A DNA stretch of 28,856 nt from an uncultured Rhodospirillales bacterium (GCA_965369185.1 CBDUPU010000001.1:1-28856), one strand, 5' to 3'. Counted from the stretch's first letter, positions 12,235 to 28,856 are shown. Notes: generated by a model not told the origin, from the sequence alone. A program made the numbers and translations.

Positions 12235-13461
12235 TTGAAGAATGCGGATGTAATCGTTGTTGGCGGCGGCCTTGCCGGACTTTCTTTAACGGCGCTGCTC
12301 GGGGCGCACGGCGTAAAGGTGCTTTGCCTTGACCGGGACGCGCAGACGACAGCGATGCAGCAGAATTTTGACGGGCGCACCACAGCGATTTCCTTTGGCT
12401 CGCGCAAAGTGCTCGCCGCCGCAGGCGTGTGGGACTTTCTGGCAGAAGATTGCTGCGCGATCGATAATATCCAGATCCTTGACGGCGACAGCCCGGTATT
12501 GCTGGAATTTGATTGCAGCGAAGTCGGCGGCCGGACGTTCGGCTGGATCGCCGAAAACCGCATGATCCGCAAGGCGCTGTATGACAAGATCCAGACGCTT
12601 GAGACCGCCGAAATTATCGCGCCGGCCGTGGTTGCCGACTATGCCGTTAGTGACGATCAGGCGAGCGTCATTCTGGCAGATGGCCGGACATTTGATGCGA
12701 AGCTGATTGTTGGTGCCGATGGCCGGTTTTCCTTCACGCGGGAGTGGATGGAAATCGGTGCGCGCGACTGGTCATACCGTCAGCGCGCGATTGTTTGCAC
12801 CGTCACGCATGAACATCCGCACGAGAACATCGCCGTTGAAAACTTTCGCCCCGAAGGGCCGTTTGCCATCCTGCCGATGACCGATGATGAACACGGCAAC
12901 CATCGTTCTTCGGTCGTCTGGACAGAACACGGCCAAGAACGCAATTCACCCATCCATTACGGTCAGGAAGCTTTTGACGCCGCCCTGCAGGCGCGTTTTC
13001 CCGAACGGTACGGAACGGTAAAGCAAATACATAAACGCTTCAACTTTCCGCTCGGCCTGATCCATGCCCATGACTATATTGCGCCGCGTATGGCGCTGGT
13101 GGCGGATGCGGCGCACGGTATTCACCCGATCGCTGGGCAAGGACTTAATTTGGGCTTCCGCGACATTGCCTCGCTCAGCGCTCTGATCGTTGAGGCCATT
13201 GAACAGGACAAGGATCCGGGCGGCGACACGCTGCTGAGCGCCTATCAGCGGGCAAGGCGTTTTGACAATATGGCGATGGCGGGGGCGACCGATACGCTCA
13301 ACCGCCTGTTTTCCAACGATATCACGCCGGTACGCATGGCACGCAAAGCAGGGCTGAAAATGGTTTCCAACCTGCCCTTCGCCAAACAGTTTTTCATGAA
13401 ACAAGCAATGGGCGCCGCCGGTCTGTTGCCGGCGCTGATCCGCGACCGCGAAGCGGCCTGA
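12235..13461 (+). CDS. FAD-dependent ubiquinone biosynthesis hydroxylase (UbiH/UbiL/COQ6 family)
   Basis: DVIVVGGGLAG, DGRTTAIS, LIVGADGRFS, LVADAAHGIHPIAGQGLNLGFRD. The TTG start is uncertain and the paralog cannot be assigned without a tree. Confidence 0.92.
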   Translation: MKNADVIVVGGGLAGLSLTALLGAHGVKVLCLDRDAQTTAMQQNFDGRTTAISFGSRKVLAAAGVWDFLAEDCCAIDNIQILDGDSPVLLEFDCSEVGGRTFGWIAENRMIRKALYDKIQTLETAEIIAPAVVADYAVSDDQASVILADGRTFDAKLIVGADGRFSFTREWMEIGARDWSYRQRAIVCTVTHEHPHENIAVENFRPEGPFAILPMTDDEHGNHRSSVVWTEHGQERNSPIHYGQEAFDAALQARFPERYGTVKQIHKRFNFPLGLIHAHDYIAPRMALVADAAHGIHPIAGQGLNLGFRDIASLSALIVEAIEQDKDPGGDTLLSAYQRARRFDNMAMAGATDTLNRLFSNDITPVRMARKAGLKMVSNLPFAKQFFMKQAMGAAGLLPALIRDREAA

Positions 13462-13493
13462 ACATTCTTCGCCCCTGATAGATTAAGCGACCT

Positions 13494-14336
13494 CTAACCC
13501 TTGGCAGGGCCGTTCATGCCCGGCACAGCATCACGCTGCGGCTGCTGTCCTTGCTGGGCAAGCTGCTGCTCTTGCTCTGGCGTCGGCTGAGGCGCCGTTG
13601 CCGGTTCCGCCGTTTCCGGTCTGGTACCATCCTGCACAGGCCCTGAAACAATCGTGCCGTCCGGGTTTTGCTGATGACCTTCGGCATTTATGCCAAACAT
13701 TTGCGCAACTTGCGCCATAGGCCCGTTGGGGCCGCCATTGCCGTCAATGACAAACTCGTCCCCTTGCATAAACTTTTGAATGCCGCCCATAAGGTTTTCG
13801 ACCATACCGGTGATCCCGTTAAATACAGCAAGCAGGGCCGCGCCGATATTTTCCCATGAAAAACCGTTCATCATTTCGCCGAGTTGGCCTTGCATATTCT
13901 GCAGGAAATTTCCGCTATTCTGCCGTTCAGCCGACCGCGCCACTTGAGCGGCAACCTGCTGTTCTGTGACTTGCTCTTTTAGAAGCGCCGAAAGACTGCC
14001 CGGCTCTTCGCGAAAACCATCAATAACCTGGCCCAGTTTCTGCGGATCGTCATGCACCAGCGCATTAATACGCTGCGCCAGTTCAGGATCCGCTTCAATT
14101 GTCTGGCCAAACTTTTCAGCCAGTTGCGGATCTTCAACGATTTGCAGCACTTCTTGCTTGATATCAGCAAGGTCTTCATCCGTCATTACCCCGGCCAGAT
14201 CAAGTTCGTTGACCGCCGGATAGGTTTCGCGCAAATGCTCAATCGCATCAATCTGGCCGGAGCTTAAACCGGCGAGTTGCAACCCCATACGTTCTGCGCC
14301 CAATGCCTGAAGCACGCTGCCCATATCAAAACCCAT
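13494..14336 (-). CDS. Hypothetical protein with 14-residue DP repeats, amphipathic segment and Q/P-rich tail
   Basis: Long ORF with GAGGAG RBS-like sequence upstream; [D/E]P at residues 69, 83, 97 and 111. Confidence 0.75.
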   Translation of the reverse strand: MGFDMGSVLQALGAERMGLQLAGLSSGQIDAIEHLRETYPAVNELDLAGVMTDEDLADIKQEVLQIVEDPQLAEKFGQTIEADPELAQRINALVHDDPQKLGQVIDGFREEPGSLSALLKEQVTEQQVAAQVARSAERQNSGNFLQNMQGQLGEMMNGFSWENIGAALLAVFNGITGMVENLMGGIQKFMQGDEFVIDGNGGPNGPMAQVAQMFGINAEGHQQNPDGTIVSGPVQDGTRPETAEPATAPQPTPEQEQQLAQQGQQPQRDAVPGMNGPAKG

Positions 14337-14810: not shown

Positions 14811-15383
14811 TTACGGTTTAAGCCTGTAACCCTGCAGCTCCCTGTAAACACTGCCTTTTTCATCAGGCGCAGCCGACAGATACAGGCCGAAACTTGCCGC
14901 CTGCCAGCTGGCCCTGACTTTGCTGCTGTTTTTCTGCTGAAACGCCTCCAGCCCCTGCGGCTTATTCAGGCGGGCAAGGGTAACGTGCGGGCGGAAAGGC
15001 TTGCGCGGCATCTCGAAACCGAGCGGCTCCAGCGCAGCGTTAATTTCGGCGGTCAGAGCCGTCAGCTTGCGCGTGCTTTGCACATCCGCCCAAAGAACCG
15101 GCTGGCGCCCTTCCTGAAAAGCGCCGAGGCCGCCCAGCTCTATATTAAAGGGGGCGCGGCGCACACGATCAAGCGCCGCCTTTATATCCGGCAGTTGCGC
15201 AGGATCGACTTCGCCGAGAAAGCGCAAGGTAATATGCATGTCATCTGCCTTGCTCCAGCGCGCATCCAGACCTTTATGCGGCAGGGCGGTGAGCGTGTCC
15301 TTAACAGATTGCGGCAAGGTCAGGGCGGCGAACAAACGTATTTTTCCGCCTGTGGCTTTTGGGTCTTGTTGCCATTCACTCAT
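14811..15383 (-). CDS. thpR: RNA 2',3'-cyclic phosphodiesterase (2H phosphoesterase, LigT/ThpR)
   Basis: IRLFAAL, HITLRFLG and FRPHVTLAR: two H-x-T motifs. Confidence 0.9.
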   Translation of the reverse strand: MSEWQQDPKATGGKIRLFAALTLPQSVKDTLTALPHKGLDARWSKADDMHITLRFLGEVDPAQLPDIKAALDRVRRAPFNIELGGLGAFQEGRQPVLWADVQSTRKLTALTAEINAALEPLGFEMPRKPFRPHVTLARLNKPQGLEAFQQKNSSKVRASWQAASFGLYLSAAPDEKGSVYRELQGYRLKP

Positions 15384-15392
15384 GCCCCGATT

Positions 15393-16004
15393 TTACGGGG
15401 CGAGCCGGATTTCTGCAACTTTCTTGAAGCGAGTCCCCTTGCCATTGTTGTTGGCCGGGTGTTCCGGGTGACTGCGGGTCAATGTCTCGCAGATATAAAA
15501 CCGGTCGCAGCGCCAGGACGGCGCTTTGATTGTACCATGCGCCTTGGCGAATTCTTTGGTCAGGTCACCCGCTTGCGGCGGCGGGCGCGCTACTGTCAAA
15601 TGGGGCGAAATTGCATGATTGCCGGTGCGGAATTCGCTGGCTTTTAAAAGTTTGACAATTTTCGTATGCAGGTCCCGCAACTCATTGTCAGCATGGTTAT
15701 CAGGCCGCGCCCAGATCACATGGTTTGACGTGTTACGCCCTTCCGGGTCCTTGAGATAAAAGCTAAGACCGGCAAAAGAGGCGTTGAACGCCTTATGCTC
15801 GATTTGCTCAAGCACTTTTACGAGCTTTTTAAATTGCCGCTCGGTCAGATGTCCCGGGAATGCGAGGGATATATGATAGTCCTCCGGGCGCTTCCATTCC
15901 CATGAATCCGGGCCGGCCTTCGTCAATTTTCTGATTTTTTCAGTGGCCCATTCAGGCGGAAAAACAGCAATAAAGAATTGCCGTTTTAGCTCTCCTTTTT
16001 CCAT
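15393..16004 (-). CDS. Second, divergent 2H phosphoesterase (ThpR-like)
   Basis: FFIAVFPP, YHISLAFPG and SPHLTVAR: H-x-S and H-x-T motifs. Confidence 0.85.
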   Translation of the reverse strand: MEKGELKRQFFIAVFPPEWATEKIRKLTKAGPDSWEWKRPEDYHISLAFPGHLTERQFKKLVKVLEQIEHKAFNASFAGLSFYLKDPEGRNTSNHVIWARPDNHADNELRDLHTKIVKLLKASEFRTGNHAISPHLTVARPPPQAGDLTKEFAKAHGTIKAPSWRCDRFYICETLTRSHPEHPANNNGKGTRFKKVAEIRLAP

Positions 16005-16093: not shown

Positions 16094-16594
16094 TCAATCG
16101 CGCTTTAAACTTCGCAAATCGTCACCGGCCGGGCGGGGAATTATTGTGTCAGGATTATGAGCAATAATGCCGGGTATCGTCTTATTGAAACGATCCAGCT
16201 CTTCCTTGTTGATCGACTTTCGATTGATTTTGATATCGTGCATTACAATACCGCCAGAAGCATCGGGGATGGCAATGCACTCGGCCATTTCAGAGCGGGT
16301 ACCGCCAAAGGCGTCGGTATAGGTATAAAAAATCCGCAATGATCGGCCATACTCGTCATAACGCGTGACCTGAAAGGACGTTGGATATTTCATACGCGCT
16401 TCAAGATAGGTGCGGCAAACGCCGAAATTTATTCCCGCCCGCAAGGGCTGCATGGCGAACCAAATAAGAAAAACAAGAACGGCAGCGCCAATGCCGAGAT
16501 ACATTTTTTGCTTTTTGCGCTTTTCCTTAAGCGCAGCGGCACGCTCCCGCGCCTGCTTTCTATCTGTATCGTCGTTGGCTGTATGATCCGTCAT
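16094..16594 (-). CDS. Hypothetical single-pass membrane protein downstream of icmB
   Basis: Basic N-terminus (KEKRKKQK), TM YLGIGAAVLVFLIWFAM, periplasmic domain with two Cys; 35 bp after the icmB stop. Confidence 0.75.
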   Translation of the reverse strand: MTDHTANDDTDRKQARERAAALKEKRKKQKMYLGIGAAVLVFLIWFAMQPLRAGINFGVCRTYLEARMKYPTSFQVTRYDEYGRSLRIFYTYTDAFGGTRSEMAECIAIPDASGGIVMHDIKINRKSINKEELDRFNKTIPGIIAHNPDTIIPRPAGDDLRSLKRD

Positions 16595-16629: not shown

Positions 16630-19600
16630 TTACAAAAGAGCCCGCTTGAATTTTTCACGCTCTTTCGCTTCCTCGGCCATTTCCGATTTCGCCACGAGCT
16701 CGGAAACAATCTCTTCGATCACAGCGCTGGTCAAGGCCCCGCGGGATTCTTTTTCCGATTCACTCTTGGCTACAACGCGGCGCTTGATCTCGTTCCGCGC
16801 ACTACCGCCGGGGAAGGCCGTCGCCAGCATCTGACGGGCACGGCTTGCGCCAAGGCGATTGTATAGGCGGTTACGAATCGAGACATCTTCTGACGATGTC
16901 GAAAGCGCCCAAAGTTCGATCGGACCGAGCGTATTATAAAGGAATTGCTCGTAACGCCCCTCCGTCGTGCCGAGAACAAACAATACGGGCGCGCCGTGGG
17001 CTTTTGGACCGGTCAACTTATAACGAATAATTTCGCGTGCTGTTTCAGACAAGCCGAAACGTTCTCGCACATTTTCAACGGCCGATTCAGAAATCGCCGA
17101 GCCAAGAACCCATACACCGGTAGCAAGATCGATCATGTCATCATCGAAATCGTCAAGCAGCTGCGAAGACAGCAGGATCTGGACGCCCCGCTTACGGCCC
17201 TCACGAACATCCCGAATCAGCTGGGAGCGCACCGACCCTGACTTACTGGTACGGTGGAATTCGTCGTAACATAGCCGTTTTGGCGTCTCGGAAATATCCT
17301 GCAAACGCGCCTCGTGATATGGACGGTATTTTTCCGGCATAAATTCAATTGATTCCGGCCCGATCCACCAGTTACGCACCAGCACGTGACGGGCAAGCAT
17401 GTACATAATGGACGTCTGGCGATCGGCAACGTCATCACCTTGCGGCGCGACATCCATCAAATCCAGAGAGCAAACGCGGCTGTCGCTGATATCAAACTGG
17501 GTGACAGAAGCCAAAATCGGGAATTCACGAATGGCGGATGTAATCATCCGTTCAAAGGCATTAATGACCGTTTCCGCACTAAAGCCGACCGAGGTTTCCT
17601 CTAGCAAAGTACGGATTTGCGGACGACGCGATGCGGTAATAGAGTCGCTGATCGTCGGCACGGCATGGCGCTGGGCCAGCCTGGCAATATGATATTCACC
17701 AAGATCGTACATTTTATCAACGACGTCCCACCAATACGGATCGGACGGCAAGTGAACGTTGAATTTCGCCAGCGCATCATCAACTTCCGGATCAAGGCGC
17801 GGCAAGAACGGGCGCGGCTCGGCATTGGCAGACACGTCATCACGCCAGCGATACATTTCGTCAACACAAAGGCCCGCAAGCTGCTGGATACCGTCATAAG
17901 GCTTTTCATGCCCCGGCGGCGTACAGAGCAGAGTCAGTAGCTCAACAAGGTAGCTACGCTCATCGATCAACGGATGCCGGCAACCAAGCTGAGTATCAAA
18001 CGGGTTAACCGCGAATTGGTGCGCCATTTGCAGACGGTAATACGTTGCCTCATGCTGGCGGTTTTGCGGCAGCGCCTCTTTAATAAGGGAAATCATCCCT
18101 GAAGAAGACGGGCCGATATCGATAACCGCGACATAAGGCAGCTTGCTGATGCCCGGTGACAAGCAAGTGCCGAGATTAAGCGCATTCAGAAGAACGGATT
18201 TACCAGCGCCCGGTTGCGCGAACACGAGATCGAACCATGTGGTTGTGACGTTCGTGCCAGTCTGATACGGCCAAAGTTTACCGTCCGGAGTCCGCAGAAG
18301 GATCGAGCCTTTTTCAAACGGGCTGGACGGACGCTGCCAAGGCATCAATTTCATGACTTCAAACATCGGCGCAACGGCGGTCGGCGCCGTACCGGAACAA
18401 TGTATCCCCATCGCCGATGACAGAACGCTATCAAGCGGGTCGCCAGAAAATTCGCTGACCTGACAATAGCCCCAACTTTCCACCGCCTGAATCAGGGTGG
18501 ACAGCCTGTTGTTAATTTCACCGGTGTCACCGGTGGCCGGTGCCCATGTCGCAAAAGATACGCGCAACTTCACCACTGGCTCACGGCGCGAGAGAATTTC
18601 CAGTCCTTCGAGGGAGAATTTGATCTGCTTGTTAAGGGAATTGGTGACGCCCATAATCGTTGCGGCAAAAGCGCGGAACGCCGTAGCGGACGCGCCGCCA
18701 CCTTCGATCATAAACGAAACACGCCACGGAATATCGGCCTCGAACAAACGGTTGAGCAGCTGCGGGAAAGGCATTGCGTCCATCGGTCCAAGCGTCATAT
18801 CGGCGCCGGCCCAATAAAGATCACCGATCTGAACAACACTACGATCGACGACATACGCATCGCCGACTGCAATTTGCTGCGATAAAGGCGGCCACATAAT
18901 ATCCGACATATCCTTGCGGCTGGTCGGCATACGCGGCGGGATCGGATCGCCCGGCAAACAGGCCTTCCAGCTCTCGTTGGCCTTGTTCGGGTAAAGATTG
19001 CTGCGCACGGCGCGCAAGGCGTCATGCACCTCCATTACTTCCGACTTGATACCGAGTTCGTCGAGCGCCGAGACCACGGCAGAAGTATAACTTCTATGCC
19101 TTGTACGCAGCGCATCAAGCGCGGCGAGAGGGAATTGCGCGTAACCGGCAGTAATCCATTTTTTTGCCTTTGATTCCTTGGCGGCGCGCTGAATCTCGTT
19201 TTTAGTAAGGATCGTCGAGCGGGTCCAGAGGACGAAATAGCACTCTTCATAAGTCAGAAAATTAGACAAATGTTTGACGCGTTCTGTGAAAACATCGTCC
19301 AGATCCATACCGGCATTGGCAGCGCCCTTACGGCTGGGGTCTACCATGCGCTTAAGATAGGCCTCGATACGGTTAGGATCACGCACGAAATAAACCTGCA
19401 TCGCGTGACCGCGGCGATCGAAACGGGCACCGACCTTGATGGTCGCGCCTTCAACGAGGTGCTGATATTCCTGTTCGCCAATAACCTGACGGCTGCCATC
19501 GACCTTCAAATAGGTCAGAAGCGATCCGTCCTTGGCAACAAGAACATGATTATCGTCTGCTGTTTCCAGCGTAATAAAACTCTCGACAGACTGACGAAGA

Positions 19601-19641
19601 AAAGTCTGAAAAGGTATGACAAATTTATAAAACCAATTCAT
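16630..19641 (-). CDS. icmB: Type IVB secretion ATPase IcmB/DotO (VirB4/TraU-like)
   Basis: 1003 aa; Walker A AQPGAGKS, IDIGPSS, INPFDT-like VNPFDTQLG, Walker B LCYDEFH, REGRKRGVQILLSSQ, C-terminal LGPIELWALST; synteny after icmJ. Confidence 0.93.
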   Translation of the reverse strand: MNWFYKFVIPFQTFLRQSVESFITLETADDNHVLVAKDGSLLTYLKVDGSRQVIGEQEYQHLVEGATIKVGARFDRRGHAMQVYFVRDPNRIEAYLKRMVDPSRKGAANAGMDLDDVFTERVKHLSNFLTYEECYFVLWTRSTILTKNEIQRAAKESKAKKWITAGYAQFPLAALDALRTRHRSYTSAVVSALDELGIKSEVMEVHDALRAVRSNLYPNKANESWKACLPGDPIPPRMPTSRKDMSDIMWPPLSQQIAVGDAYVVDRSVVQIGDLYWAGADMTLGPMDAMPFPQLLNRLFEADIPWRVSFMIEGGGASATAFRAFAATIMGVTNSLNKQIKFSLEGLEILSRREPVVKLRVSFATWAPATGDTGEINNRLSTLIQAVESWGYCQVSEFSGDPLDSVLSSAMGIHCSGTAPTAVAPMFEVMKLMPWQRPSSPFEKGSILLRTPDGKLWPYQTGTNVTTTWFDLVFAQPGAGKSVLLNALNLGTCLSPGISKLPYVAVIDIGPSSSGMISLIKEALPQNRQHEATYYRLQMAHQFAVNPFDTQLGCRHPLIDERSYLVELLTLLCTPPGHEKPYDGIQQLAGLCVDEMYRWRDDVSANAEPRPFLPRLDPEVDDALAKFNVHLPSDPYWWDVVDKMYDLGEYHIARLAQRHAVPTISDSITASRRPQIRTLLEETSVGFSAETVINAFERMITSAIREFPILASVTQFDISDSRVCSLDLMDVAPQGDDVADRQTSIMYMLARHVLVRNWWIGPESIEFMPEKYRPYHEARLQDISETPKRLCYDEFHRTSKSGSVRSQLIRDVREGRKRGVQILLSSQLLDDFDDDMIDLATGVWVLGSAISESAVENVRERFGLSETAREIIRYKLTGPKAHGAPVLFVLGTTEGRYEQFLYNTLGPIELWALSTSSEDVSIRNRLYNRLGASRARQMLATAFPGGSARNEIKRRVVAKSESEKESRGALTSAVIEEIVSELVAKSEMAEEAKEREKFKRALL

Positions 19642-19785
19642 AAGATGACGCTGCCGTTACTCACTGCTGTTAGCCATGGCGCAAAGAAGAATTACCCACC
19701 AATAGATAGTATATAGTTTAAACGGTTCGGGAAATAGTTCGATTATTCTTTTTTTGCTTTTTGCCGAATTTATCGCGCAAAACAC

Positions 19786-20484
19786 CTAAGCCGCTTCTGC
19801 AACAGCGCGCGCCTGCTGATAAAGACCGACCCATTCTTTCGGAATTTTACCGCCGAACGGGCCGTCTTTTGACCGCCAGTAAGCAAGAATTTGAGGAAAC
19901 TGGTTAAATTCGAGATCGGATTCCCTGATAATCCGGCGATCCAGCGGAAAGAGCCGAATGCCTTCCAGCTTATCACGGCGCGTTTCATAACTTGCCTGAC
20001 TGATATAATCCTTTAGCACGGTTGAAAGAATAAACGGGTCGTCTGTGCCCAGACGATTACGCATTTCGTCGCGCCGTTTCATCAAAACTTCTAAAGAGCG
20101 CCGCGCCGCATCGGCAATCGGTCCCTGTGAAATTCGCGCGACATAAACCGCACGCGCAATATGGTGAAGCTGTGCCTGTGAAAGTTCAGGCAGCCATATA
20201 AGGACACCGGAGCGCATGGCACTGACATCATCCAGATTGAAACATTGGTGACAGAAAATACAGGTCGTCGCCATATTGTCAGGCTGCACATCATTGCGGC
20301 GGCCATTTAAAAAATGAACATCCTGATATTTAGCAGAGCGGAACCCGCAGCACTGGCAAGTATGATTGTCGCGTTCGAAAATCTTTTGCTTGAGCTCCGG
20401 AGTCAGCTTGCTTTTATCTGAAGAAGCGGACTGGGCATTGCGCGAAGACCGTGCAATGCCCAGTGTAATAGGTATGTTACGCAT
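19786..20484 (-). CDS. icmJ: IcmJ/DotN (Zn-binding HNH-like, TraT-like)
   Basis: RDNHTCQCCGF...HFLNG...TCIFCHQCF, LIWLPELSQAQL; lies between icmD and icmB. Start MRNIP at 20484 preferred over TTG at 20514. Confidence 0.88.
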   Translation of the reverse strand: MRNIPITLGIARSSRNAQSASSDKSKLTPELKQKIFERDNHTCQCCGFRSAKYQDVHFLNGRRNDVQPDNMATTCIFCHQCFNLDDVSAMRSGVLIWLPELSQAQLHHIARAVYVARISQGPIADAARRSLEVLMKRRDEMRNRLGTDDPFILSTVLKDYISQASYETRRDKLEGIRLFPLDRRIIRESDLEFNQFPQILAYWRSKDGPFGGKIPKEWVGLYQQARAVAEAA

Positions 20485-20506
20485 TTTACTTATGGTCGCG
20501 TTATCC

Positions 20507-20521
20507 TTAACCAAAGTTTAC
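20507..20521 (-). repeat. 15-bp motif GTAAACTTTGGTTAA, copy 2 (upstream of icmJ)
   Basis: Exact match to 21327-21341. Confidence 0.85.
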
Positions 20522-20898
20522 TGAACGGCGAAGTCAACCTGATTCAGCGTTGCCGCGTTCACGCCAGCGCCATCACCGATCGTTTCGAACATTGCTTCGT
20601 ATACAATCGGCAGGGCAAACAGACCGCCACCGGCTGCCAGACGAATTGCACCATCTTTCAGCGGTGTTTGCTGCGGGTTCTCAACATGGTCCTTGATTTT
20701 CAGGATGCCAAGAACACCGATCAAAATGCCGAACATATATGCAAGACCTGTCAACAGACCCGGCACACTTTCAACAGAAGTGGTGATGTTTTGTGCAATA
20801 GAGCTGAAGTTGTTGGCATGAGCTGCCGAGCTGCTAAGCAGCATCCCCGACATCAAAGCCGCGCCCATCATCAGTGAAGTACGATTTAGTTTTTTCAT
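20518..20898 (-). CDS. icmD: IcmD/DotP-like small membrane protein, copy 2
   Basis: Signal peptide ...SSAAHA|, two hydrophobic helices around KIKDHVENPQQTP; syntenic position between icmC and icmJ; AGGAGG RBS. Confidence 0.82.
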   Translation of the reverse strand: MKKLNRTSLMMGAALMSGMLLSSSAAHANNFSSIAQNITTSVESVPGLLTGLAYMFGILIGVLGILKIKDHVENPQQTPLKDGAIRLAAGGGLFALPIVYEAMFETIGDGAGVNAATLNQVDFAVQ

Positions 20899-20921
20899 TT
20901 CTCACAGTCCTCCTACAAGTT

Positions 20922-21305
20922 TTATTGAACGGCGAAGTCAACCTGGTTCAGTGTTGCCGCAGTCACACCAGCACCATCACCGATCGTTTCAAACATTGCT
21001 TCGTATACAATCGGCAGGGCAAACAAACCGCCACCGGCTGCCAGACGAATCGCCCCGTCTTTCAGCGGTGTTTGTTGCGGATTCTCAACATGGTCCTTGA
21101 TTTTCAGGATACCAAGAACGCCGATCAAAATGCCGAACATATATGCAAGACCTGTCAGCAGACCCGGTACACTTTGAACGGACGTTGTAATATTTTCTGC
21201 GATGGAGCTGAAGTTGTTACCAGCATGTGCCGCCGAGCTGCTAAGCAGCATCCCCGACATCAAAGCCGCACCCATCATCAGCGATGCACGATTTAGTTTT
21301 TTCAT
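20922..21305 (-). CDS. icmD: IcmD/DotP-like small membrane protein, copy 1
   Basis: Differs from copy 2 by 4 amino-acid substitutions and one Gly indel. Confidence 0.82.
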   Translation of the reverse strand: MKKLNRASLMMGAALMSGMLLSSSAAHAGNNFSSIAENITTSVQSVPGLLTGLAYMFGILIGVLGILKIKDHVENPQQTPLKDGAIRLAAGGGLFALPIVYEAMFETIGDGAGVTAATLNQVDFAVQ

Positions 21306-21326
21306 AGTTTATGGTCCTCTCTCACG

Positions 21327-21341
21327 TTAACCAAAGTTTAC
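21327..21341 (-). repeat. 15-bp motif GTAAACTTTGGTTAA, copy 1 (upstream of icmD copy 1)
   Basis: Exact match to 20507-20521; it also encodes the last codons of icmC (V-N-F-G-stop). Confidence 0.85.
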
Positions 21342-22322
21342 ACCAACAGCGCTTAATCCGAAAGTCTCTTGAACTGCGTTCAACAACGGCCCCAGATTAA
21401 TGGCAAGAGCGCCGCCGAACAGGTGGGTCATACCCGCCATCAACGATGCTTGCTGGTTTCCTTCCGCTACATCTCTGATAATGAACCAGCCGCGGACAAA
21501 GCTGACCCACCCCAAGACCATAACAAATGCAAGCACCGCACTTATTACGCTCAAAACATGTTCCCTTTCCGGATCCGTAAGTCCGGCATCGAAAGTAAGT
21601 TGCGCCTGGTTTGCGACTTGGTCGGTCGTGAACAGCGTCGTTGACCAGGCAGACATCATCTCATCGGCCGAGAACAGTGCGCCGGCGACAATAAATGTCA
21701 TGATCGTGCCAAAACCGCCCGGGCCGCGCGGGCCTTCCTGCGCCGATTTAAGCAACCGCAAGATACCAATAATCGTCAGGATCGTAGCAGCCATATAGCA
21801 GAATAATTTAACAACGTTGGCGAAAGGCTTGTACGCATCATTCATCAACGCAACAACCATCGCATCAAGTCCGGCGCCTGTCGGCGACCCTGCCCAGCTA
21901 TCACTGCTGAGAGTAAGCGCATCGCCGCTATTATTACTCAGCGTGACGTAAACAACCTCCATCACCATCGGCAGCGCGAACAGGCAGCCCGCGCAAATAG
22001 TGCGCTTTAGCGGCTCCCATATAGAGACCTGGTGCGGGTTTTGAACATGTTCGTAAAATTTGGCGATTGCCCAGAGACCGATGACCAGACCAAAAAGGTA
22101 ACTCATCCCGGCGAGAAGCCCGACAGACTCAGTACTGTTTTCAAAAACGTTACAAAGGACGCCGCCGATTGTGGTGTCCTGACCGCAGGTACCGGCTGAA
22201 GTTGCCGGGCTGATACCACCCGCAAGAGCCGGCAAGGCAGACAGAAGAACAATCGCCAACGGCATAAACCCATGAACGATTATACTATTTCTGATTTTTT
22301 TAAAACCTATGCCGCCACGCAT
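21327..22322 (-). CDS. icmC: IcmC/DotE-like polytopic membrane protein with an extra N-terminal IcmD-like unit
   Basis: Three helical-hairpin repeats (K..EHVQNPHQ, R.LKSAQEGPRG, RDVAEGNQQAS); position between icmG and icmD. Confidence 0.75.
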   Translation of the reverse strand: MRGGIGFKKIRNSIIVHGFMPLAIVLLSALPALAGGISPATSAGTCGQDTTIGGVLCNVFENSTESVGLLAGMSYLFGLVIGLWAIAKFYEHVQNPHQVSIWEPLKRTICAGCLFALPMVMEVVYVTLSNNSGDALTLSSDSWAGSPTGAGLDAMVVALMNDAYKPFANVVKLFCYMAATILTIIGILRLLKSAQEGPRGPGGFGTIMTFIVAGALFSADEMMSAWSTTLFTTDQVANQAQLTFDAGLTDPEREHVLSVISAVLAFVMVLGWVSFVRGWFIIRDVAEGNQQASLMAGMTHLFGGALAINLGPLLNAVQETFGLSAVGVNFG

Positions 22323-22537
22323 GACACACCCAAATTTACTTATATAGTTAACTTAACCGTTTTATTGATCTTTATTACCCTTATTACCCTCTTCTAATAA
22401 TTAGATCACATTTTATATAAATTGTGCAAGTTTCAAGGGTCATATCAAAGGTATAGGCAAAGAGTTAATATTTAGTTGATCAGCGCCTTGCGTTTACCGG
22501 CCTGATTCAAAGAATACTTATTTATCATGGGTGATAC
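22323..22537 (-). promoter_or_regulatory. AT-rich internal promoter region upstream of icmC
   Basis: 215-bp AT-rich gap containing CTATAT (-10-like, minus strand, about 22342-22347), a tandem TTATTACCC x2 (22372-22389) and TTAA-N7-TTGA (22465-22479). Confidence 0.5.
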
Positions 22538-23896
22538 TTACTGACTAATGCGTCCGGCAGATCCCTGCACAACCCAGCGCCCGTTCTCGACAAAAATACC
22601 GGTAACCTTACCGATACCGTCAAGATTTTCGCCGACAGTGACACTATACATGTCATCGCCGCCTTTACGCGCGACCATGGCCTGCCCCGGCTGTGCCGAT
22701 TTCAGTACCCAGCTGGCTGTGCCAGACTGGGGAGCAACCGGCTTCGAAGCCGGTTTTGCTGCGGTTCGCGCCGGTGCCGTTTTCTCTACGGACCTCGGTG
22801 CTGACTTTACTGCAGAGGAAACATCGTTATTTTTCGGCGCCTTCTCCAAAGTCGCCAAACGGTTTTCAAGTTTGGTAACGCTGGTCTGAAGATCATCAAG
22901 CTGATCAAGATTACTTTCGATTTGGCCCAGCCGGTCAGTAATGCGATCGAGCTTCTCATTCAACTGCGCAACATCGCCACTCTGCACCTTGGCTTGAGAG
23001 GCAGAAACAGCAGAAACCGCCTCAGGCCTGTCATCATTCATATTAACGGTATCAGCCGGAGTCTCTACCGACTGCACCGCCAACTTATCGCCCGTCGCGC
23101 GCACCGGATCCGCCGGCTCATCATTGTCCTTTTCAACAGAAGCCTCACCCAGACGCTCCGGCATCGGGATCAACCCCTCAACCGGTTCCGGGCGCGGAGA
23201 ACGTGGAACGACCGGCGCTTCGGTTACATCCGGGGCCTCAGCCTGAGCCATAGGGGCGGGCATCGGCAAATCACCATCAGCTACCTTGCCATTACTTTCA
23301 TCAACGACAACCAGCTGCGTCGGTACAGCCGCCTCACGGTTACGCAAGCGCGCTAAAGCCTGCGGATCATTCAGCAGACCTTCCCGGCGTTGCTCTTCTT
23401 CCGGGGCAGCAACATGCGCTTCATCCTGCTTACCGTAGGTTACCCCGAAAGCATCCTTGGGCTTTACCTTGGTTTCATTATGAAATTCAACCCGTTCGCT
23501 GGGGTTGACCTGCGCTGCGCCGGCGACTTTTTCCATGATCGGGGCGCCAAGATTTTCTTCTTTACGGGCGGACATCACCACGTAACCACCGACACCGACA
23601 GCAAAAATAACCAGACTGCCAATGATCAGCTTATAAAAAGCAGCCTTTCGCTCTTCAGAGCCATCGCCATCACTATCATCGATAAAGCCCTCTTCATCAT
23701 AGGCTTCCCAGTCTTCTTCGATAAAGTCATCGCCACCAACGTCATCAGCGAAACCATCATCGGCAGAAAAATCCGCAGCGTCGAAATCTTCATCGGCATA
23801 TGGCTGTTGATTGCCGTCACCATCCATTGCCAGATCGTCTTCCTGGGTCAAATCTTCCGGAATCTGATTTTCAATGTCCTTATCGCCACTCATCAT
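22538..23896 (-). CDS. icmG: IcmG/DotF-like (TraP-like) core-complex protein
   Basis: Acidic N-terminus, single TM (LIIGSLVIFAVGVGGYVVM), Pro-rich linker, heptad coiled coil (LNEKLDRITDRLGQIESNL), C-terminal WVLKSAQPGQAMV...VTVGENLDGIGKVTGI...WVV domain; synteny. Confidence 0.8.
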   Translation of the reverse strand: MMSGDKDIENQIPEDLTQEDDLAMDGDGNQQPYADEDFDAADFSADDGFADDVGGDDFIEEDWEAYDEEGFIDDSDGDGSEERKAAFYKLIIGSLVIFAVGVGGYVVMSARKEENLGAPIMEKVAGAAQVNPSERVEFHNETKVKPKDAFGVTYGKQDEAHVAAPEEEQRREGLLNDPQALARLRNREAAVPTQLVVVDESNGKVADGDLPMPAPMAQAEAPDVTEAPVVPRSPRPEPVEGLIPMPERLGEASVEKDNDEPADPVRATGDKLAVQSVETPADTVNMNDDRPEAVSAVSASQAKVQSGDVAQLNEKLDRITDRLGQIESNLDQLDDLQTSVTKLENRLATLEKAPKNNDVSSAVKSAPRSVEKTAPARTAAKPASKPVAPQSGTASWVLKSAQPGQAMVARKGGDDMYSVTVGENLDGIGKVTGIFVENGRWVVQGSAGRISQ

Positions 23897-23953
23897 ACTG
23901 CCATTATATCAAATTTGTTTTGCTAACTGGTTATGAAATTTCAGCCGCCGAAC

Positions 23954-25219
23954 CTATTGAACCTCATCCGTCACTGGCGTGACAAATAGCAGCCCCATCG
24001 GCGTGCCGGCACCGACACGAATCATCGGCTCCGTATTGCTGGCTTTTTCATCGAGAATCTCGCTAATCGTTTCCGCGCTCTTCTCAATCCCTTTGAAGAT
24101 CTCCTGATTGGTATCAAGATCCTGCGTGTCCTGAACCGCCGCACCCTGATCAACAACAACAGTCGTCGAGCCGGATTCGGCAATCGCAGCACCCATCCCT
24201 TCAACAAAAGAAGCTGCCGCCGGCAAAATAACGCGGGTAAAGTAACGATGATCAATCTCTGTCACCATACCAATGCTCGTCGTTTCCGGATTCAGGGCTA
24301 CAGCCTCTGTCGGGTGGACAATCCCGTCAATTACGATGGAATTGAAATTAAGCACCAGATACTCTTCTTCCACTTCAAAAGTACCCAGCAAACGGCTACC
24401 GGCAAAAGGCCCGCTGACCAGCTGTGCCAAAATCGGCCCTTCCGCATCAGAGTTCGCCTCGGTAATCAGCTGCGCATAGGCAATCGTACCGGCGGGAATG
24501 AGAACGTTTACAATCTCTCCATCGCCAGTAACACCGTCAGCTCCGGCCTGCCGCCGCCGCTCGGCTTCAGCCTCACGCTCTTTGCGCTCTTCCCTGCGCT
24601 GCTGCTCGATAAAGTCCGGATCGGTAATATTCATACTGATCGCCTCAATCGGCATTTTACTCTCCAGAATACCTTCCATCTGGCCCGCCATTGCGTTGGC
24701 AAGAGCGTCAATCGCATCAGCATACGGATCCGCAGCCTGAACGGCAGAGCGCTGCTGGCTTACCTGACGCTGGCGTTCTTCCTGAATACGGCGCCAGCGC
24801 TCCAGAGGATCTTCTGCGCCGGTTTTCTCTTCCGGCAGCACCAGACGTTGCACCGGCGTATCAACAGGGGTCGGCATCGCACTGCCGCCGCCACGAACAG
24901 CTTCTTGCGTACGCTGCTCGTTACTCTCGACAATAGCATCCCTCATTGCCTGAGAAATCTCATCGCCGGGCGCTGCGCTAACATCACGCCCAGGCCGCAC
25001 AACAGACTGAAGCGTAGGATCCTGCTTGCCGCCGAACAGTATAATAGCACCAATTACAGTGACCAGACCGCCGGCAATAACCCCGATCTTGACCAGCGGG
25101 TTATTACGCCACATATCACCGAGCGACGTGCCGCCGCCTTCAAAATCCTCGAAACCGCCTTCATTACCATCATCATCAAAGTCGATGTGATCATCCTGAA
25201 AATCGTCGTTATTGCTCAT
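23954..25219 (-). CDS. icmE: IcmE/DotG (VirB10/TrbI/TraO-like), short form
   Basis: TM LVKIGVIAGGLVTVIGAIILF; C-terminal IPAGTIAYAQLITEANSD..GPILAQL..GPFAGSRLLG, IDHRYFTR, IRVGAGTPMGLLF. Confidence 0.88.
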   Translation of the reverse strand: MSNNDDFQDDHIDFDDDGNEGGFEDFEGGGTSLGDMWRNNPLVKIGVIAGGLVTVIGAIILFGGKQDPTLQSVVRPGRDVSAAPGDEISQAMRDAIVESNEQRTQEAVRGGGSAMPTPVDTPVQRLVLPEEKTGAEDPLERWRRIQEERQRQVSQQRSAVQAADPYADAIDALANAMAGQMEGILESKMPIEAISMNITDPDFIEQQRREERKEREAEAERRRQAGADGVTGDGEIVNVLIPAGTIAYAQLITEANSDAEGPILAQLVSGPFAGSRLLGTFEVEEEYLVLNFNSIVIDGIVHPTEAVALNPETTSIGMVTEIDHRYFTRVILPAAASFVEGMGAAIAESGSTTVVVDQGAAVQDTQDLDTNQEIFKGIEKSAETISEILDEKASNTEPMIRVGAGTPMGLLFVTPVTDEVQ

Positions 25220-26270
25220 CTAAAGCATCCTTTTCGCTCAGACCGGCGCGCACAACCTGCCCCCGATCAGACAGCAACAAGACCGGAGAGTTAGCGATCG
25301 CATATACATTCATCCCATCTGCGGAAGACACAGAGCCGGACCAGCCGGGCGACAACAAAGTCAACGGCGTCCGCACATAAGTAACGCCCTGCAATTTATA
25401 GGCACTTGTCCGGCCATCCACTCCCGTAACACTCAGCTTTTCCGAACCGGTCGGCGGAACCCCGTCAAGAATAGAACCAAGAATAGAGTTTCCGGCAACA
25501 AGGGTGAGACCGCCATCGATAAGCGGCGTTTCCGCATAAGGGCCGTATTCAGGAATGCGTGCATCAAATCGGTAATGCACAGAATCGCGAGACGTCTTCA
25601 AAGTAAACGTTACCGGAGTCTTCAGCTCATTAAGCCGCAGCGAAATGTTGCCATAGCCAAACTCGGACATACCGGTAATGCGAATAACATGACCACCGGC
25701 CTCAGGCGGAATCACCTCGAAATTACCGGCAAAGGTCAAATCCTGAACCGGCCAGGGAGCACCCGTAACGTCAAGAACCGTCAAGGTTGTTACATGACCG
25801 ACACCGACTTTTATTACCGGCGGCCTGGTGCCCGGATCAAGCGAAACGGTCTGAACAACCACTTCCGGCTCCGGATAAGGATAAATCGGCACTTCCACGG
25901 CCTGCTGCGTTTCATCAAAACGCTCGAGCAGCTTCCTGATTTCATCAGGATTCATTGGCAAAAGACCGGTCAATGCGGCATTGAATGCCTGCTGCCGAAT
26001 CATTTTTTCAATCTCTTCCGGACTGCGCGGACGCTCTTCTTCCTGAATCGCGAAAGGATCAATCACCTCATCCTTTGCGGTCGGCAAAGACATTCCGGGC
26101 GCACGCGGCGGGCGCGTCCTTTCTTCCGGCAGCGCAGACTGGGGCGCAGCGCCCTCTGAGCGCGACAAAGCCCCTTGCGGCAACTGCGCAAAAGCGCCCG
26201 GCATAGACACAAACATTGTCGCGCAAGCACACGACATCAAAATCATTTTTTTGGATAACCTGCGGATCAT
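25209..26270 (-). CDS. icmK: IcmK/DotH (TraN-like) outer-membrane core-complex protein
   Basis: Signal peptide, LLPMNPDEIR, VSLDPGTRPPVIKV..GHVTTL..LDVTGAPWP, DGRTSAY, YVRTPLTLLSPGW, SSADGMNVY; overlaps the icmE start by 11 bp. Confidence 0.9.
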   Translation of the reverse strand: MIRRLSKKMILMSCACATMFVSMPGAFAQLPQGALSRSEGAAPQSALPEERTRPPRAPGMSLPTAKDEVIDPFAIQEEERPRSPEEIEKMIRQQAFNAALTGLLPMNPDEIRKLLERFDETQQAVEVPIYPYPEPEVVVQTVSLDPGTRPPVIKVGVGHVTTLTVLDVTGAPWPVQDLTFAGNFEVIPPEAGGHVIRITGMSEFGYGNISLRLNELKTPVTFTLKTSRDSVHYRFDARIPEYGPYAETPLIDGGLTLVAGNSILGSILDGVPPTGSEKLSVTGVDGRTSAYKLQGVTYVRTPLTLLSPGWSGSVSSADGMNVYAIANSPVLLLSDRGQVVRAGLSEKDALDEQ

Positions 26271-26409
26271 CCACCTAACCCCGTTTTCAAAAATACCCCC
26301 AATGCGGACGGCAAAATTCCGTCCCTCAACAGAATATATTCACATGAACCAACTGTCACCCCGCCCACCTAAAAAGATGCACAATTAATATACAATCTTC
26401 CCAAGCGGC

Positions 26410-27177
26410 CTAGCCCGGCACGGCGACCCACTGCTCGATACCAACACCGTTCGGGCTTTCCAGCCTGGAAACACGAACAACAACAATGGTGATCATCAGG
26501 TCATCAGAACGCTTCAACGAACCAGACTGATAAGTCAAAATCATGGGCAACTGGACAATCCACTGATAGCGCCCCTGTACAACACCCTCACGCTCCAGCA
26601 CAGGCGCGCCGCGCGGCGCAGCCGTGACGACTTGCTGATTCGCCTCGACCATCTCAATAATACGCGAGGCCTGAAGCGCCTTGGTAAAGCTCTCCCAGCC
26701 ACGACGCGTAAAGTTGCGGGAAGCTTCCTGCAAGCGGCGACGATAATCATTAAAGCCAAAAGTCATCACTTCTGTCGAAGCCTGCGCCACCCACGACATC
26801 AGGGCCGGTGTACTCAGATTCGGCTCATTCAGGGCGACCATCGGAATCAAACGGCCATCCTCGGTCGTGGCGAAATAGCGGTTTTCCGGTTGATGCACAT
26901 GAACAACAAAGAGCATCGCGCCAATAAGGCCGATAATCACCAGCGTCTGCAGCAGGGCAAGCTTGAGAATTGTCCGGTAGCCATCGCGATAAAACTCGTT
27001 TCGCACGACAACAGCGCCAAGCGTCCCGATGTTCTGCGCGTTAGGCGCCGCCTTTCCGGATGAAGCCGCCGGAGAGTCCGGTCGCTGGCCAGCCCCTTTG
27101 GCGGGCTTGAATTTTCTGGGGTTGGCTTTGCCGCCAACCGCTTGAGGTGCCTTTTTTGCAGGATTATCGTCAGCCAT
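26410..27177 (-). CDS. icmL: IcmL/DotI (VirB8/TraM-like)
   Basis: RNEFYRDGYR, TM, YFATTEDGRLIPM..L.EP, WVAQA...TFGFNDYRRRLQ...FT..GW..F..AL, WIVQLP, GVGIEQW. Confidence 0.93.
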   Translation of the reverse strand: MADDNPAKKAPQAVGGKANPRKFKPAKGAGQRPDSPAASSGKAAPNAQNIGTLGAVVVRNEFYRDGYRTILKLALLQTLVIIGLIGAMLFVVHVHQPENRYFATTEDGRLIPMVALNEPNLSTPALMSWVAQASTEVMTFGFNDYRRRLQEASRNFTRRGWESFTKALQASRIIEMVEANQQVVTAAPRGAPVLEREGVVQGRYQWIVQLPMILTYQSGSLKRSDDLMITIVVVRVSRLESPNGVGIEQWVAVPG

Positions 27178-27412
27178 GGATATCGAAATTCAAGAGATAA
27201 GGAAATGTTACATTTAAGAATAACCAACAATGAGTATGAAGACCAAACCAAAATATCTCAAGCCCTTTATAAAAATACAGAAACAATTCTTTCGATGCGG
27301 GGCAAATTGCCGCACTATTACAGCTTCGTTTTTTGTGCACTCTGCGGAAGAGTGTGTTAAAATATTATAAGTTTAAGTCTAAACTGCGGGCAGTTGCGGG
27401 GTTTTTATAAGG

Positions 27413-28744
27413 ATGAAAGATCTTGCCATCACGGCACGGCGGATTTTTTTCGGGCAATCGCGAAAAATTTTGCTGACTTTCCTGTGTCTGGTTCTGGTCA
27501 CAGGCTTTTCTCTCACCCTTTCACAAAGGGCGTGGGCTTGCGCGCCCTGTAGCTGTGTTTCCGTTAATCACGCCATAACCCGCGGCGTTGTTCTGAGCGA
27601 ACATTTGTTGACCCAGGAGCATATTCGCATTCAGTTCGAACGGCACCGCGAAGAATTCTTTGTCTATTACTTCTTTAAAGAGCATGTTCTGGCCGCAATG
27701 ATGATGATGACCGAACAGCTGGTTGGCAATGCCATGAACCAGATGTTCATTGTCGGCGCTTTTTTCGATGCCAAGGAGCAACTTGAAACCCAGCAGCTTT
27801 TTCAACAGCTCGCTGCCGAGGCGCATAAGAATTATCAGCCCAGCGTCGGGATGTGCGAAATCGGCACCCTTTCCCGCAGCCTTGCCGCATCCCAGCGCCA
27901 CGGCGAGTTTAACGGCTATTTCCTGAGCCAGTACATGCAGGACCGCCAGATGCGCACCCTGCCGACTTCTGCCGCTGCAGGACGCGCACTGGAGGTCAAT
28001 AGCCGCTGGCTGCAGTGGAAAGAGACGTTTTGTAACCCGCATGATAATGACGGCTGGCTCGGGCCGCGTAGCTCCGACCCTATATGTACGGGCACCCCCG
28101 TGCTTTACCGCAACGCCGATGTTGATTTTACGACAACGATTGGCCACCCGACCACCGTCAATGTCGACTTCTCGGAGCCGGGCACGAATCAGGCCAACGA
28201 AGCGGTCTTTGGCCTTACCGGCAATCTTTACGGCAACGATGTTTTCGCCTATTTCCCCGAAGCCTTTTTCAAAAACGAGGAAAATGAAGACGAATATATG
28301 TATGTCCGTTCGATCGTTGCCAAACGCAGCGTCGCGCAAAATTCGTTCAATGCGCTGGTTGCCCTGAAGTCACGGGGTAAAATCGAAACGGAAGAGCTGG
28401 CTCCTTACATGCAGCGGCTAATGGAACAGCTTGGTTTGCCTGCCACAGAAGCCCAGCAATATTTTGCAACCACGCGGCCGAGCTATTATGCCGAGATGGA
28501 GCTTTTGACCAAAAAGCTTTACCAGCGCCCGGAATTTTATACCAACCTTTACGACAAGCCTATCAATGTCGAGCGCAAACGTGCGGCAATGCAGGCCATC
28601 GGTCTGATGCAGAATATGGACTTATATAAAAGCAAACTCCGCACCGAGGCTTCGCTGGCCGTATTGACGGAACTGGAGATATTCAAGCAACAAGAAGAAG
28701 TACAAAACCGCATTGGCGGGGCAAGGGATACGGGGCTGAAATAA
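27413..28744 (+). CDS. Exported Cys-containing hypothetical protein, possibly IcmX/TraW-like
   Basis: Signal peptide ending RAWA|CAPCSC, mostly helical composition, 443 aa, divergent from icmL. The family assignment is an inference. Confidence 0.75.
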   Translation: MKDLAITARRIFFGQSRKILLTFLCLVLVTGFSLTLSQRAWACAPCSCVSVNHAITRGVVLSEHLLTQEHIRIQFERHREEFFVYYFFKEHVLAAMMMMTEQLVGNAMNQMFIVGAFFDAKEQLETQQLFQQLAAEAHKNYQPSVGMCEIGTLSRSLAASQRHGEFNGYFLSQYMQDRQMRTLPTSAAAGRALEVNSRWLQWKETFCNPHDNDGWLGPRSSDPICTGTPVLYRNADVDFTTTIGHPTTVNVDFSEPGTNQANEAVFGLTGNLYGNDVFAYFPEAFFKNEENEDEYMYVRSIVAKRSVAQNSFNALVALKSRGKIETEELAPYMQRLMEQLGLPATEAQQYFATTRPSYYAEMELLTKKLYQRPEFYTNLYDKPINVERKRAAMQAIGLMQNMDLYKSKLRTEASLAVLTELEIFKQQEEVQNRIGGARDTGLK

Positions 28745-28745
28745 T

Positions 28746-28856
28746 ATGATGCAGCGAAAAAATACAGGCAGGGCGAAAAAGGGGCTGTTGGCGGCCGCTT
28801 TCTGCATGTTTTTTGCCGTGACTTTCGCGCCGAGTGCGGCCCGTGCCTGCGATCCA
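28746..28856 (+). CDS. Exported protein (partial, runs off window end)
   Basis: ATG 1 bp after the previous stop gives MMQRKNTGRAKKGLLAAAFCMFFAVTFAPSAARA|CDP..., a signal peptide with Cys at mature +1. Confidence 0.65.
   Translation, partial: MMQRKNTGRAKKGLLAAAFCMFFAVTFAPSAARACDP

Follow-up and report, generated by a model that had tools for sequence, protein, structure and literature searches.

The DNA contig analysed here (CBDUPU010000001.1; "the window" below means its whole length of 28,856 base pairs, bp) carries at positions 16630-27177 the core operon of a Dot/Icm-type secretion system. Our best explanation, to which we give a probability of about 0.6, is that the operon belongs to a complete Dot/Icm-type system (type IVB secretion system, T4BSS; mating-pair formation class I, MPF-I), which is a vertically inherited, domesticated and relaxase-independent protein translocator with prey bacteria as its most likely target. 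The window is the whole of contig C1, the longest contig of a fragmented metagenome-assembled genome (MAG) of 2.31 Mb in 321 contigs (53% G+C, completeness 90.3%, contamination 3.5%). With IcmB as the query, 71 loci were recovered at 67-88% identity. Their titles mostly name Micavibrio sp., Micavibrio aeruginosavorus or unclassified Alphaproteobacteria, with few exceptions, and the complete chromosome of M. aeruginosavorus HCB189 is among them (IcmB identity 76%). By these matches the MAG comes from a Micavibrio-like bacterium (Micavibrionaceae). A Micavibrio-like origin had been proposed in an earlier reading of the same DNA made without database searches (the sequence-only reading).

Nine genes lie contiguous and closely spaced on the minus strand, and all of them are open. 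The first gene of the operon, icmL, encodes a component of the inner-membrane complex. In the order of transcription, with sizes in amino acids (aa), the genes are as follows.

26410-27177, minus strand: icmL/dotI, 255 aa; NF038072 208.8 bits (cut-off 175), PF11393 227 bits
25209-26270, minus strand: icmK/dotH, 353 aa, of the outer-membrane core complex; PF12293 283 bits, with the whole model matched
23954-25219, minus strand: icmE/dotG, short form, 421 aa, with a TrbI/VirB10-like C-terminal domain; PF03743 TrbI 38.8 bits
22538-23896, minus strand: icmG/dotF-like gene in the traP position, 452 aa; NF038218 29.7 bits, NF033885 TraP 23.4 bits
21327-22322, minus strand: icmC/dotE-like gene, 331 aa; NF033883 TraQ 37.7 bits on residues 155-323
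20922-21305, minus strand: icmD/dotP copy 1 in the traR position, 127 aa; TrbC/VirB2-pilin 20.2 bits, DUF6750 19.6 bits
20518-20898, minus strand: icmD/dotP copy 2, 126 aa, recently duplicated in tandem from copy 1
19786-20514, minus strand: icmJ/dotN, 242 aa, a coupling-complex protein; NF038221 99 bits (cut-off 100)
16630-19641, minus strand: icmB/dotO, 1003 aa, VirB4-family ATPase

The profile matches were strong and specific for four proteins, namely IcmL/DotI, IcmK/DotH, the C-terminal domain of IcmE/DotG, and IcmJ/DotN. IcmG, IcmC and both IcmD proteins gave hidden Markov model (HMM) matches below the cut-off and owe their names chiefly to where they lie in the IncI traP-Q-R order. The DotG profile NF033900 matched IcmE/DotG with 141 bits at model positions 733-1007 only, and the TraO profile NF033884 matched it with 73.9 bits. 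Legionella DotG contains a long repeat region, which the 421-residue protein of the window lacks. IcmC combines a TraQ-like C-terminal half with an N-terminal IcmD-like unit, as revealed by a local alignment with IcmD, and the first IcmD copy has a signal peptide and a hydrophobic pilin-like hairpin. Among 30 related loci, icmC and the first icmD were kept in all 30 and the icmG/dotF-like gene in 29.

IcmB had no sequence match in Pfam, NCBIfam or PDB. In tblastn searches, 95% of its length aligned with TraU of IncI1 (26.5% identity, E 1e-82), and it aligned full-length with a plasmid gene annotated DotO at 32% identity; phmmer scored it at 327 bits to TraU of ColIb-P9. It supplies the VirB4-family ATPase by which an MPF-I system is recognized. 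Systems of the class named pT4SSi are called where icmB is clustered with at least six further MPF-I genes (10.1101/852004; PMC9418006). Here, counting HMM matches and position together, the genes for DotI, DotH, DotG, a DotF-like, an IcmC-like and two IcmD-like proteins and DotN adjoin icmB. The sequence-only reading had described the icmL-icmK-icmE-icmG-icmC-icmD-icmD-icmJ-icmB block as intact and its order as that of the Legionella icm region and of IncI traM-N-O-P-Q-R-T-U. The open frames and the HMM and similarity matches upheld the former at the same coordinates, and the annotated ColIb-P9 record, from which the IncI1 reference order was taken, agreed with the latter.

The two icmD copies share 96% amino-acid and 90% nucleotide identity. 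A 404-bp tandem repeat, the only notable direct repeat in the window, spans 20512-21328; this duplication gave rise to the second icmD. In the relatives with a printed gene order, only one icmD copy fits. An exact 15-bp motif was found at 20507-20521, just before icmJ, and at 21327-21341, just before icmD copy 1, and a diverged copy of it precedes icmD copy 2. The motif would fit the edge of the duplicated unit.

A whole-genome profile search located the rest of the machine on other contigs of the MAG. DotD (128.6 bits) and DotC/TraI (262.7 bits) are encoded on contig C249, where dotD-dotC come after a lytic transglycosylase gene and the contig ends within dotB, of which it keeps the N-terminal part. 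The outer-membrane core set DotC-DotD-DotH is present in the MAG. The dotM and dotL genes are on contig C7, between ilvH-ilvC-flgC and argS, and the coupling complex DotL-DotM-DotN is likewise present, together with four DotA proteins and the DotB N-terminus. The DotA proteins, four DotA/TraY paralogs each about 900 aa long, are encoded in tandem (C61:6259-11285 and C35:1-5200) and have a mutual identity of 38-43%. All six genomes examined, this MAG included, have three to four such tandem paralogs (e.g., G425:C1:2277728-2285621), and DotB was full-length and single-copy in 5/5 relatives. The system had been expected to be split across loci, and so it proved (dotM-dotL on C7, dotD-C-B on C249, dotA on C61/C35); the remaining essential dot/icm genes, on whose presence the sequence-only reading depended, were found.

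On the HCB189 chromosome, the order is icmB...icmL, divergent IcmX-like genes, flgK-flgL, a 463-aa gene and icmT-dotB-dotC-dotD, and beyond dotD a lytic transglycosylase gene, a 336-aa gene and a DsbG/DsbC-like gene. Mapping the HCB189 proteins back placed the MAG contigs in the order C83, C249, gap, C125, window. The flagellar hook-associated genes flgK-flgL lie between two T4BSS modules in the MAG, as they do in HCB189. The apparatus is intact and envelope-spanning, with a core of DotC/D/H plus DotF/DotG and with DotI, IcmC and IcmD in the inner membrane (IcmT in relatives). Its three ATPases are IcmB/DotO, DotB and the coupling protein DotL, the last with DotM and DotN. In phmmer searches with single IncI1 proteins, no homologue of TraK, L, P, Q, R, S, V, W, X, TraH or TrbB was detected.

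Several observations concern the neighbours of these scattered genes. A gene for a DsbG/DsbC-like thiol-disulfide isomerase adjoins the dotD-C-B module (HCB189 13422-14291; MAG C83:7309-8169) and recalls TrbB of IncI1. Between dotM and dotL lies a 183-aa gene (C7, 11416-11967) for which the ESM Atlas gave no named family. M. aeruginosavorus ARL-13 has a counterpart between the same two genes (GMV_384, 582 bp), and the 183-aa product is a candidate accessory or adaptor of the coupling complex. An orphan DotI/IcmL-domain protein of 273 aa (C39:2499-3320; NF038072 62.8 bits) is encoded among ubiB, COQ9, gapR and acs, apart from the other T4BSS genes, and may be a DotJ-like partner.

The system is a vertically inherited chromosomal trait of the order. 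It occupies a fixed site and occurs as a single copy in about 96% of genomes at both the family and the order level. DotH (PF12293) is nearly always single-copy where it occurs. Of the 151 genomes sampled from the GTDB family, 145 have it (58/60 genera), as do 196/201 genomes of the order, covering all 8 families. Across the class, sampled at one genome per family, only 16 of 161 genomes had it, a count that includes one unpublished genome (G283). The gene order is invariant, and the downstream flank ubiH-omp-rnpA-yidC-engB is common to other genera, M. aeruginosavorus included. IcmB, with identities of 73-86%, is better conserved than the linked housekeeping proteins, which average 57-71%, and the apparatus is under strong constraint. 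Over 14 loci, the identities of T4BSS and linked housekeeping proteins were positively but not significantly correlated (rho 0.41, p 0.15).

Among the window open reading frames (ORFs) scanned, there was no integrase, transposase, relaxase or replication gene. The window contains no tRNA gene, and no direct repeats flank the block. The locus carries no relaxase, integrase, tRNA gene or flanking repeat of the kind that a NikB (MOBP)/NikA/oriT-type conjugation system would bring. The sequence-only reading had called the block chromosomal and had noted no relaxase, integrase, transposase or plasmid replication gene; the ORF scan and the housekeeping flanks, conserved even in M. aeruginosavorus without marks of a plasmid or of an integrative and conjugative element (ICE), are in line with both statements. 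We considered and rejected an ICE or plasmid origin of the block, given the missing relaxase, integrase, tRNA gene and att repeats, the fixed synteny and the order-wide single copy. Because of this order-wide single-copy occurrence, the fixed synteny and the lack of a relaxase or att site at the locus, we read the system as domesticated and vertically inherited.

The relaxase domain PF03432 was found in 70 of 151 family genomes (46%) at 0-7 copies, and the other 81 had no match. This tally was made on family genomes at least 95% complete, the MAG itself excepted; the DotH tally used other filters for its sample of the family. Within the limits of the PF03432 family, no relaxase accompanies the system. 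The only PF03432 match in the MAG is an RlxS-type relaxase adjoining the mercuric reductase MerA (C12:6488-10754). The MAG also has a separate VirB-type (type IVA) system on C42:1-8021, with VirB11 followed by ORFs sized like VirB10, VirB9, VirB8, VirB6 and VirB4, and a VirD4 on C182:1-1167. The RlxS-type relaxase goes more naturally with these VirB-type genes and VirD4 than with the T4BSS, and the genes on C42, C182 and C12 probably represent an ICE or plasmid in the bin that is unrelated to the T4BSS. The T4BSS has no dedicated relaxase. The best plasmid-borne match of IcmB was on the Methylorubrum extorquens AM1 megaplasmid (NC_012811.1, 466852-469797, 44% identity). This homologue is an orphan: no other window protein matched within 14 kb on either side of it. 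PLSDB types the replicon of this megaplasmid as MPF_I and non-mobilizable.

The operon is flanked by further genes that are linked to the system.

16094-16594, minus strand: orf166, directly after icmB in 29/30 related loci, the tenth gene of the operon
27178-27412, no strand: divergent intergenic region of 235 bp between icmL and the IcmX-like operon, with presumed promoters (from the gene layout)
27413-28744, plus strand: orf443, an IcmX/TraW-like exported helical protein (assignment probable), 443 aa, at the head of an array of tandem paralogs
28745-28856, plus strand: start of the next gene, its frame open to the window end and cut there by the contig end

The AlphaFold model of orf166 (predicted local distance difference test, pLDDT, 87.5) shows an N-terminal membrane helix and a small alpha/beta domain. 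No family was found for it in Pfam, NCBIfam, PDB (including a profile search of the orf166 family) or the ESM Atlas. In Foldseek, the best hits were BamC-N and MlaC-like folds at E 5e-3 and weaker, which is not significant, and hhalign gave no match between the orf166 family and TraV. The product is predicted to be an unnamed T4BSS-linked component. In the divergent region, one sigma-70-like match was found on the minus strand (27261-27233); the match count in the 235 bp was not above chance.

The orf443 gene diverges from icmL in 28/30 related loci. It had no sequence match in Pfam, NCBIfam or PDB, even as an 18-member profile, and a Pfam search of all 18 members found none either. Hhalign of the orf443 family with TraW of ColIb-P9 was not significant (E 0.059, probability 0.9%), and aligned a short ETQRL...C...YC stretch. 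An ESM Atlas feature search placed orf443 near clusters with PF28212 TraW-like in 23% of their members (score 0.95), and the adjoining paralog in M. aeruginosavorus HCB189 matched the TraW profile NF033888 at E 1.8e-5. The orf443 model is of low confidence (pLDDT 57.6). Its first-ranked Foldseek hit was 9ngy, the Legionella DotA-IcmX protochannel, at E 1.6, which is not significant alone. VIA-align of the same low-confidence model also put 9ngy at the top (Z 8.2, root-mean-square deviation 7.6 Å over 244 residues; next chain Z 5.9). Several lines, each of them weak, agree here, and we consider orf443 and its paralogs fairly likely to be IcmX/TraW-like. The fragment at 28745-28856 is probably the next IcmX-like paralog. 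Two further paralogs, followed by flgK-flgL, lie on C125:4613-7067, and the paralogs are 36-41% identical. HCB189 has two IcmX-like genes and this MAG has three or more; in four other genomes, two of which belong to the genus of the MAG, there are five in tandem. Invariant cysteines were noted in these proteins.

How such a machine would work in this lineage can be outlined from its parts. DotL-DotM-DotN would recruit the substrates, DotO and DotB would energise the transport, and the substrates would pass both the DotC/D/H/G/F core and a DotA-IcmX-type channel on their way into a prey bacterium at the attachment site. The multiple DotA and IcmX-like paralogs may serve as alternative channel tips. 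Micavibrio strains in culture are obligate epibiotic predators with Gram-negative prey (PMC3189940; PMC12428579), which makes the prey cell the most economical target, and we infer a role in epibiotic predation. Protein delivery for predation, as opposed to conjugation, gains strength from the order-wide single-copy inheritance and the patchy occurrence of relaxases.

Several points weigh against this picture. Neither a substrate nor an effector or translocation signal was identified. A search of this MAG and five other genomes of the genus with PF09850 (DotU) was negative. No IcmS, IcmW, LvgA, IcmQ, IcmR, IcmV/TraX or DotK was identified, where no model or reference was used for the adaptors (IcmS, IcmW and LvgA) and IcmQ/IcmR. 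The last ~145 residues of DotL, which correspond to the adaptor-binding region in Legionella, do not align. The MAG search gave no icmT and no dotB beyond the N-terminus, both of which fall in the C125-C249 assembly gap. The relaxase tally covers PF03432 (MOBP/Q-type) alone. The predatory lifestyle is known from cultured relatives, and the MAG is uncultured. The expression data described below cover only the dotL-dotM locus of another species (ARL-13). Finally, with a eukaryotic target in mind, ankyrin-repeat matches range from 0 to 19 within the genus, with no Ank_2 match in the MAG.

One alternative is that this domesticated T4BSS has eukaryotic cells (protists or algae) as its target, as in the Legionellales; many uncultured Micavibrionales would then live in association with eukaryotes. 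All characterised chromosomal Dot/Icm systems act on eukaryotic hosts (general knowledge; PMC9418006), the components are nearer to Legionella than to IncI1, and some genomes of the genus have several ankyrin-repeat genes. Nevertheless, the sole cultured members, including M. aeruginosavorus with its syntenic system, are obligate predators of Gram-negative bacteria, and the MAG lacks an Ank_2 match. As to parts that characterise the Legionellales machine, the search for DotU in the six genomes, which had no separate query for IcmF, was negative, and none of IcmS/W was identified, although no search was aimed at IcmS/W. We regard a eukaryotic target as unlikely.

A non-translocating role, as an adhesion or attachment organelle or as an envelope-spanning scaffold at the contact pole, appears less likely still. 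The paralog expansions do affect the DotA and IcmX-like families, whose Legionella counterparts form the DotA-IcmX protochannel (PDB 9ngy). However, the three ATPases and the full DotL-DotM-DotN complex are intact, and IcmB is among the best conserved of the proteins compared, which would be difficult to account for if nothing were actively transported. The least probable of the alternatives is a conjugative or DNA-transfer system, be it an ICE, an integrated IncI-like plasmid remnant or a device for DNA uptake or release. The IncI1 traM-N-O-P-Q-R-T-U order, the traH-I-J-K genes in relatives, the one relaxase in the MAG and the PF03432 domain in 46% of the family genomes could be read in this way. 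The locus itself, however, has no relaxase, integrase, tRNA gene or flanking repeats; the parts are spread over at least three chromosomal neighbourhoods, each with housekeeping neighbours; and the system is single-copy, of fixed synteny and inherited order-wide. Moreover, 81 of the 151 family genomes have no PF03432 match, and the sole PF03432 relaxase of the MAG is of RlxS type, lies beside MerA and is accounted for by the separate VirB-type system and VirD4.

A relaxase-independent protein translocator directed at prey remains our preferred explanation. A bolder version of it is that the Micavibrionales inject proteins into bacterial prey by a Dot/Icm-type machine, with the DotA (3-4) and IcmX-like (2-5) paralogs as interchangeable tips for different prey envelopes. 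We put this forward as a tentative idea that is more likely wrong than right; if true, it would make bacteria the target of a type IVB system for the first time.

In the literature covered, the system is almost undescribed for Micavibrio-like bacteria. The 2011 genome paper on ARL-13 stated that type III and type IV systems are absent and proposed hemolysins and type I/II secretion (PMC3189940). A T4BSS evolutionary study was confined to the Gammaproteobacteria (10.1101/852004). A 2022 MacSyFinder survey of marine genomes listed seven Micavibrionales among the pT4SSi carriers, in one sentence and without further analysis (PMC9418006); the remark in the sequence-only reading that presence alone might not be new was thus correct. 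Beyond that survey, the full-text literature covered, which leaves aside subscription journals, held nothing on Micavibrio or Micavibrionales together with a T4BSS. In the ARL-13 RNA-seq table (PMC3189940, additional file 4), a gene annotated icmO and its two neighbours had expression indices of 1.7-4.3 across the attack and the attachment phase.

The rest of C1 encodes housekeeping functions (truA, an FtsH-like protease, fmt, def, rmuC, engB, yidC, rnpA), besides an outer-membrane beta-barrel protein (omp), a UbiH-type monooxygenase (ubiH) and two LigT proteins. The FtsH-like AAA protease (1373-3076, 567 aa) has AAA and M41 domains and an N-terminus apparently shorter than usual; the sequence-only reading had described it as lacking a membrane anchor. 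The two adjoining genes of the LigT/2'-5' RNA ligase family (14811-16004, 190 and 203 aa) are located between the T4BSS operon and the ubiH flank and are present in just 2-3 of 30 related loci. Elsewhere in the MAG, contig C119:3275-4630 encodes a T7-like large terminase (NF033889, 432 bits), which occurs in 5/6 genomes of the genus and may belong to a prophage or to a cluster resembling a gene-transfer agent.

For the way in which epibiotic predators such as Micavibrio kill and drain their prey from outside, a complete and strongly conserved Dot/Icm-type injector that occurs order-wide is a concrete candidate, genetically testable in cultured strains. The results would also extend type IVB systems beyond the eukaryote parasitism of the Legionellales and the IncI plasmids, as an ancient trait passed on vertically within an order of the Alphaproteobacteria. 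With their multiplied DotA and IcmX-like genes, these bacteria offer a natural experiment on the DotA-IcmX protochannel, whose structure was solved recently.

By sequence similarity, the components are closer to Legionella Dot/Icm than to IncI1 Tra, with bit scores 2-3 times higher, which places them nearer to the effector-translocating branch. DotI scored 106.9 bits to Legionella DotI (PDB 3wz4) versus 41.7 to TraM of R64 (3wz3), and DotH 169.6 bits to Legionella DotH (PDB 6x62) versus 77.4 to TraN of ColIb-P9. For the coupling complex, the scores were 84-86 bits to Legionella DotN (PDB 5x42, 6sz9) versus 26 to TraT, 495 bits to Legionella DotL (PDB 6sz9_A) versus 211 to TrbC, and 77 bits (76.6) to Legionella DotM versus 24 to TrbA. 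Residues 3-655 of DotL align with the Legionella protein. Shared with Legionella Dot/Icm are DotA, B, C and D, IcmT, DotI, H, G and F, IcmC, IcmD, DotN, DotO, DotL, DotM and an IcmX-like protein, as well as the icmL-K-E-G-C-D-J-B order and the chromosomal location in several loci without a relaxase. The Legionella host is a gammaproteobacterial intracellular parasite, whereas the system described here belongs to an alphaproteobacterial bacterial predator. It also differs from that of Legionella in the lack of a detectable DotU (six genomes), the short DotG, the unrelated DotL tail, the enlarged IcmC, the duplication of icmD in the MAG and the grouping of dotD-C-B-icmT, which are together as in IncI. 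Legionella and IncI1 have one DotA each, but the Micavibrio-type systems have 3-4 in tandem, and 2-5 IcmX-like proteins compare with one in Legionella.

The IncI1 systems (R64/ColIb-P9, MPF-I) share the traM-N-O-P-Q-R-T-U order, a TraW-like gene, traH-I-J-K nearby, the short DotG, and a DsbC-like gene (cf. TrbB) and a lytic transglycosylase gene beside the system. Unlike them, the present system has no NikA/NikB relaxosome and no plasmid backbone, and it is chromosomal and vertically inherited. Protein identity to IncI1 is just 26-29%, and the similarity is lower than to the Dot/Icm proteins. The X-T4SS of Xanthomonas, Stenotrophomonas and Lysobacter offers a functional analogy only. According to papers cited in PMC12428579, it is chromosomal and relaxase-independent and has been proposed to inject toxic proteins into rival or prey bacteria on contact; it is, however, a VirB/VirD4 type IVA system of another family, with which only the ancestry of VirB4, VirB10 and VirD4 is shared. 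The pT4SSi of 'Candidatus Comchoanobacter' (Needham et al. 2022, PMC9418006) is likewise relaxase-less and outside the Legionellales, but its bearer is a gammaproteobacterial associate of a eukaryote, unlike the Micavibrio-type predators. Compared with all of these, the system of the window is a variant marked by its predatory lineage, an IncI-like gene order combined with Dot/Icm-like sequences, a short DotG, the lack of DotU, and multiplied DotA and IcmX-like proteins.

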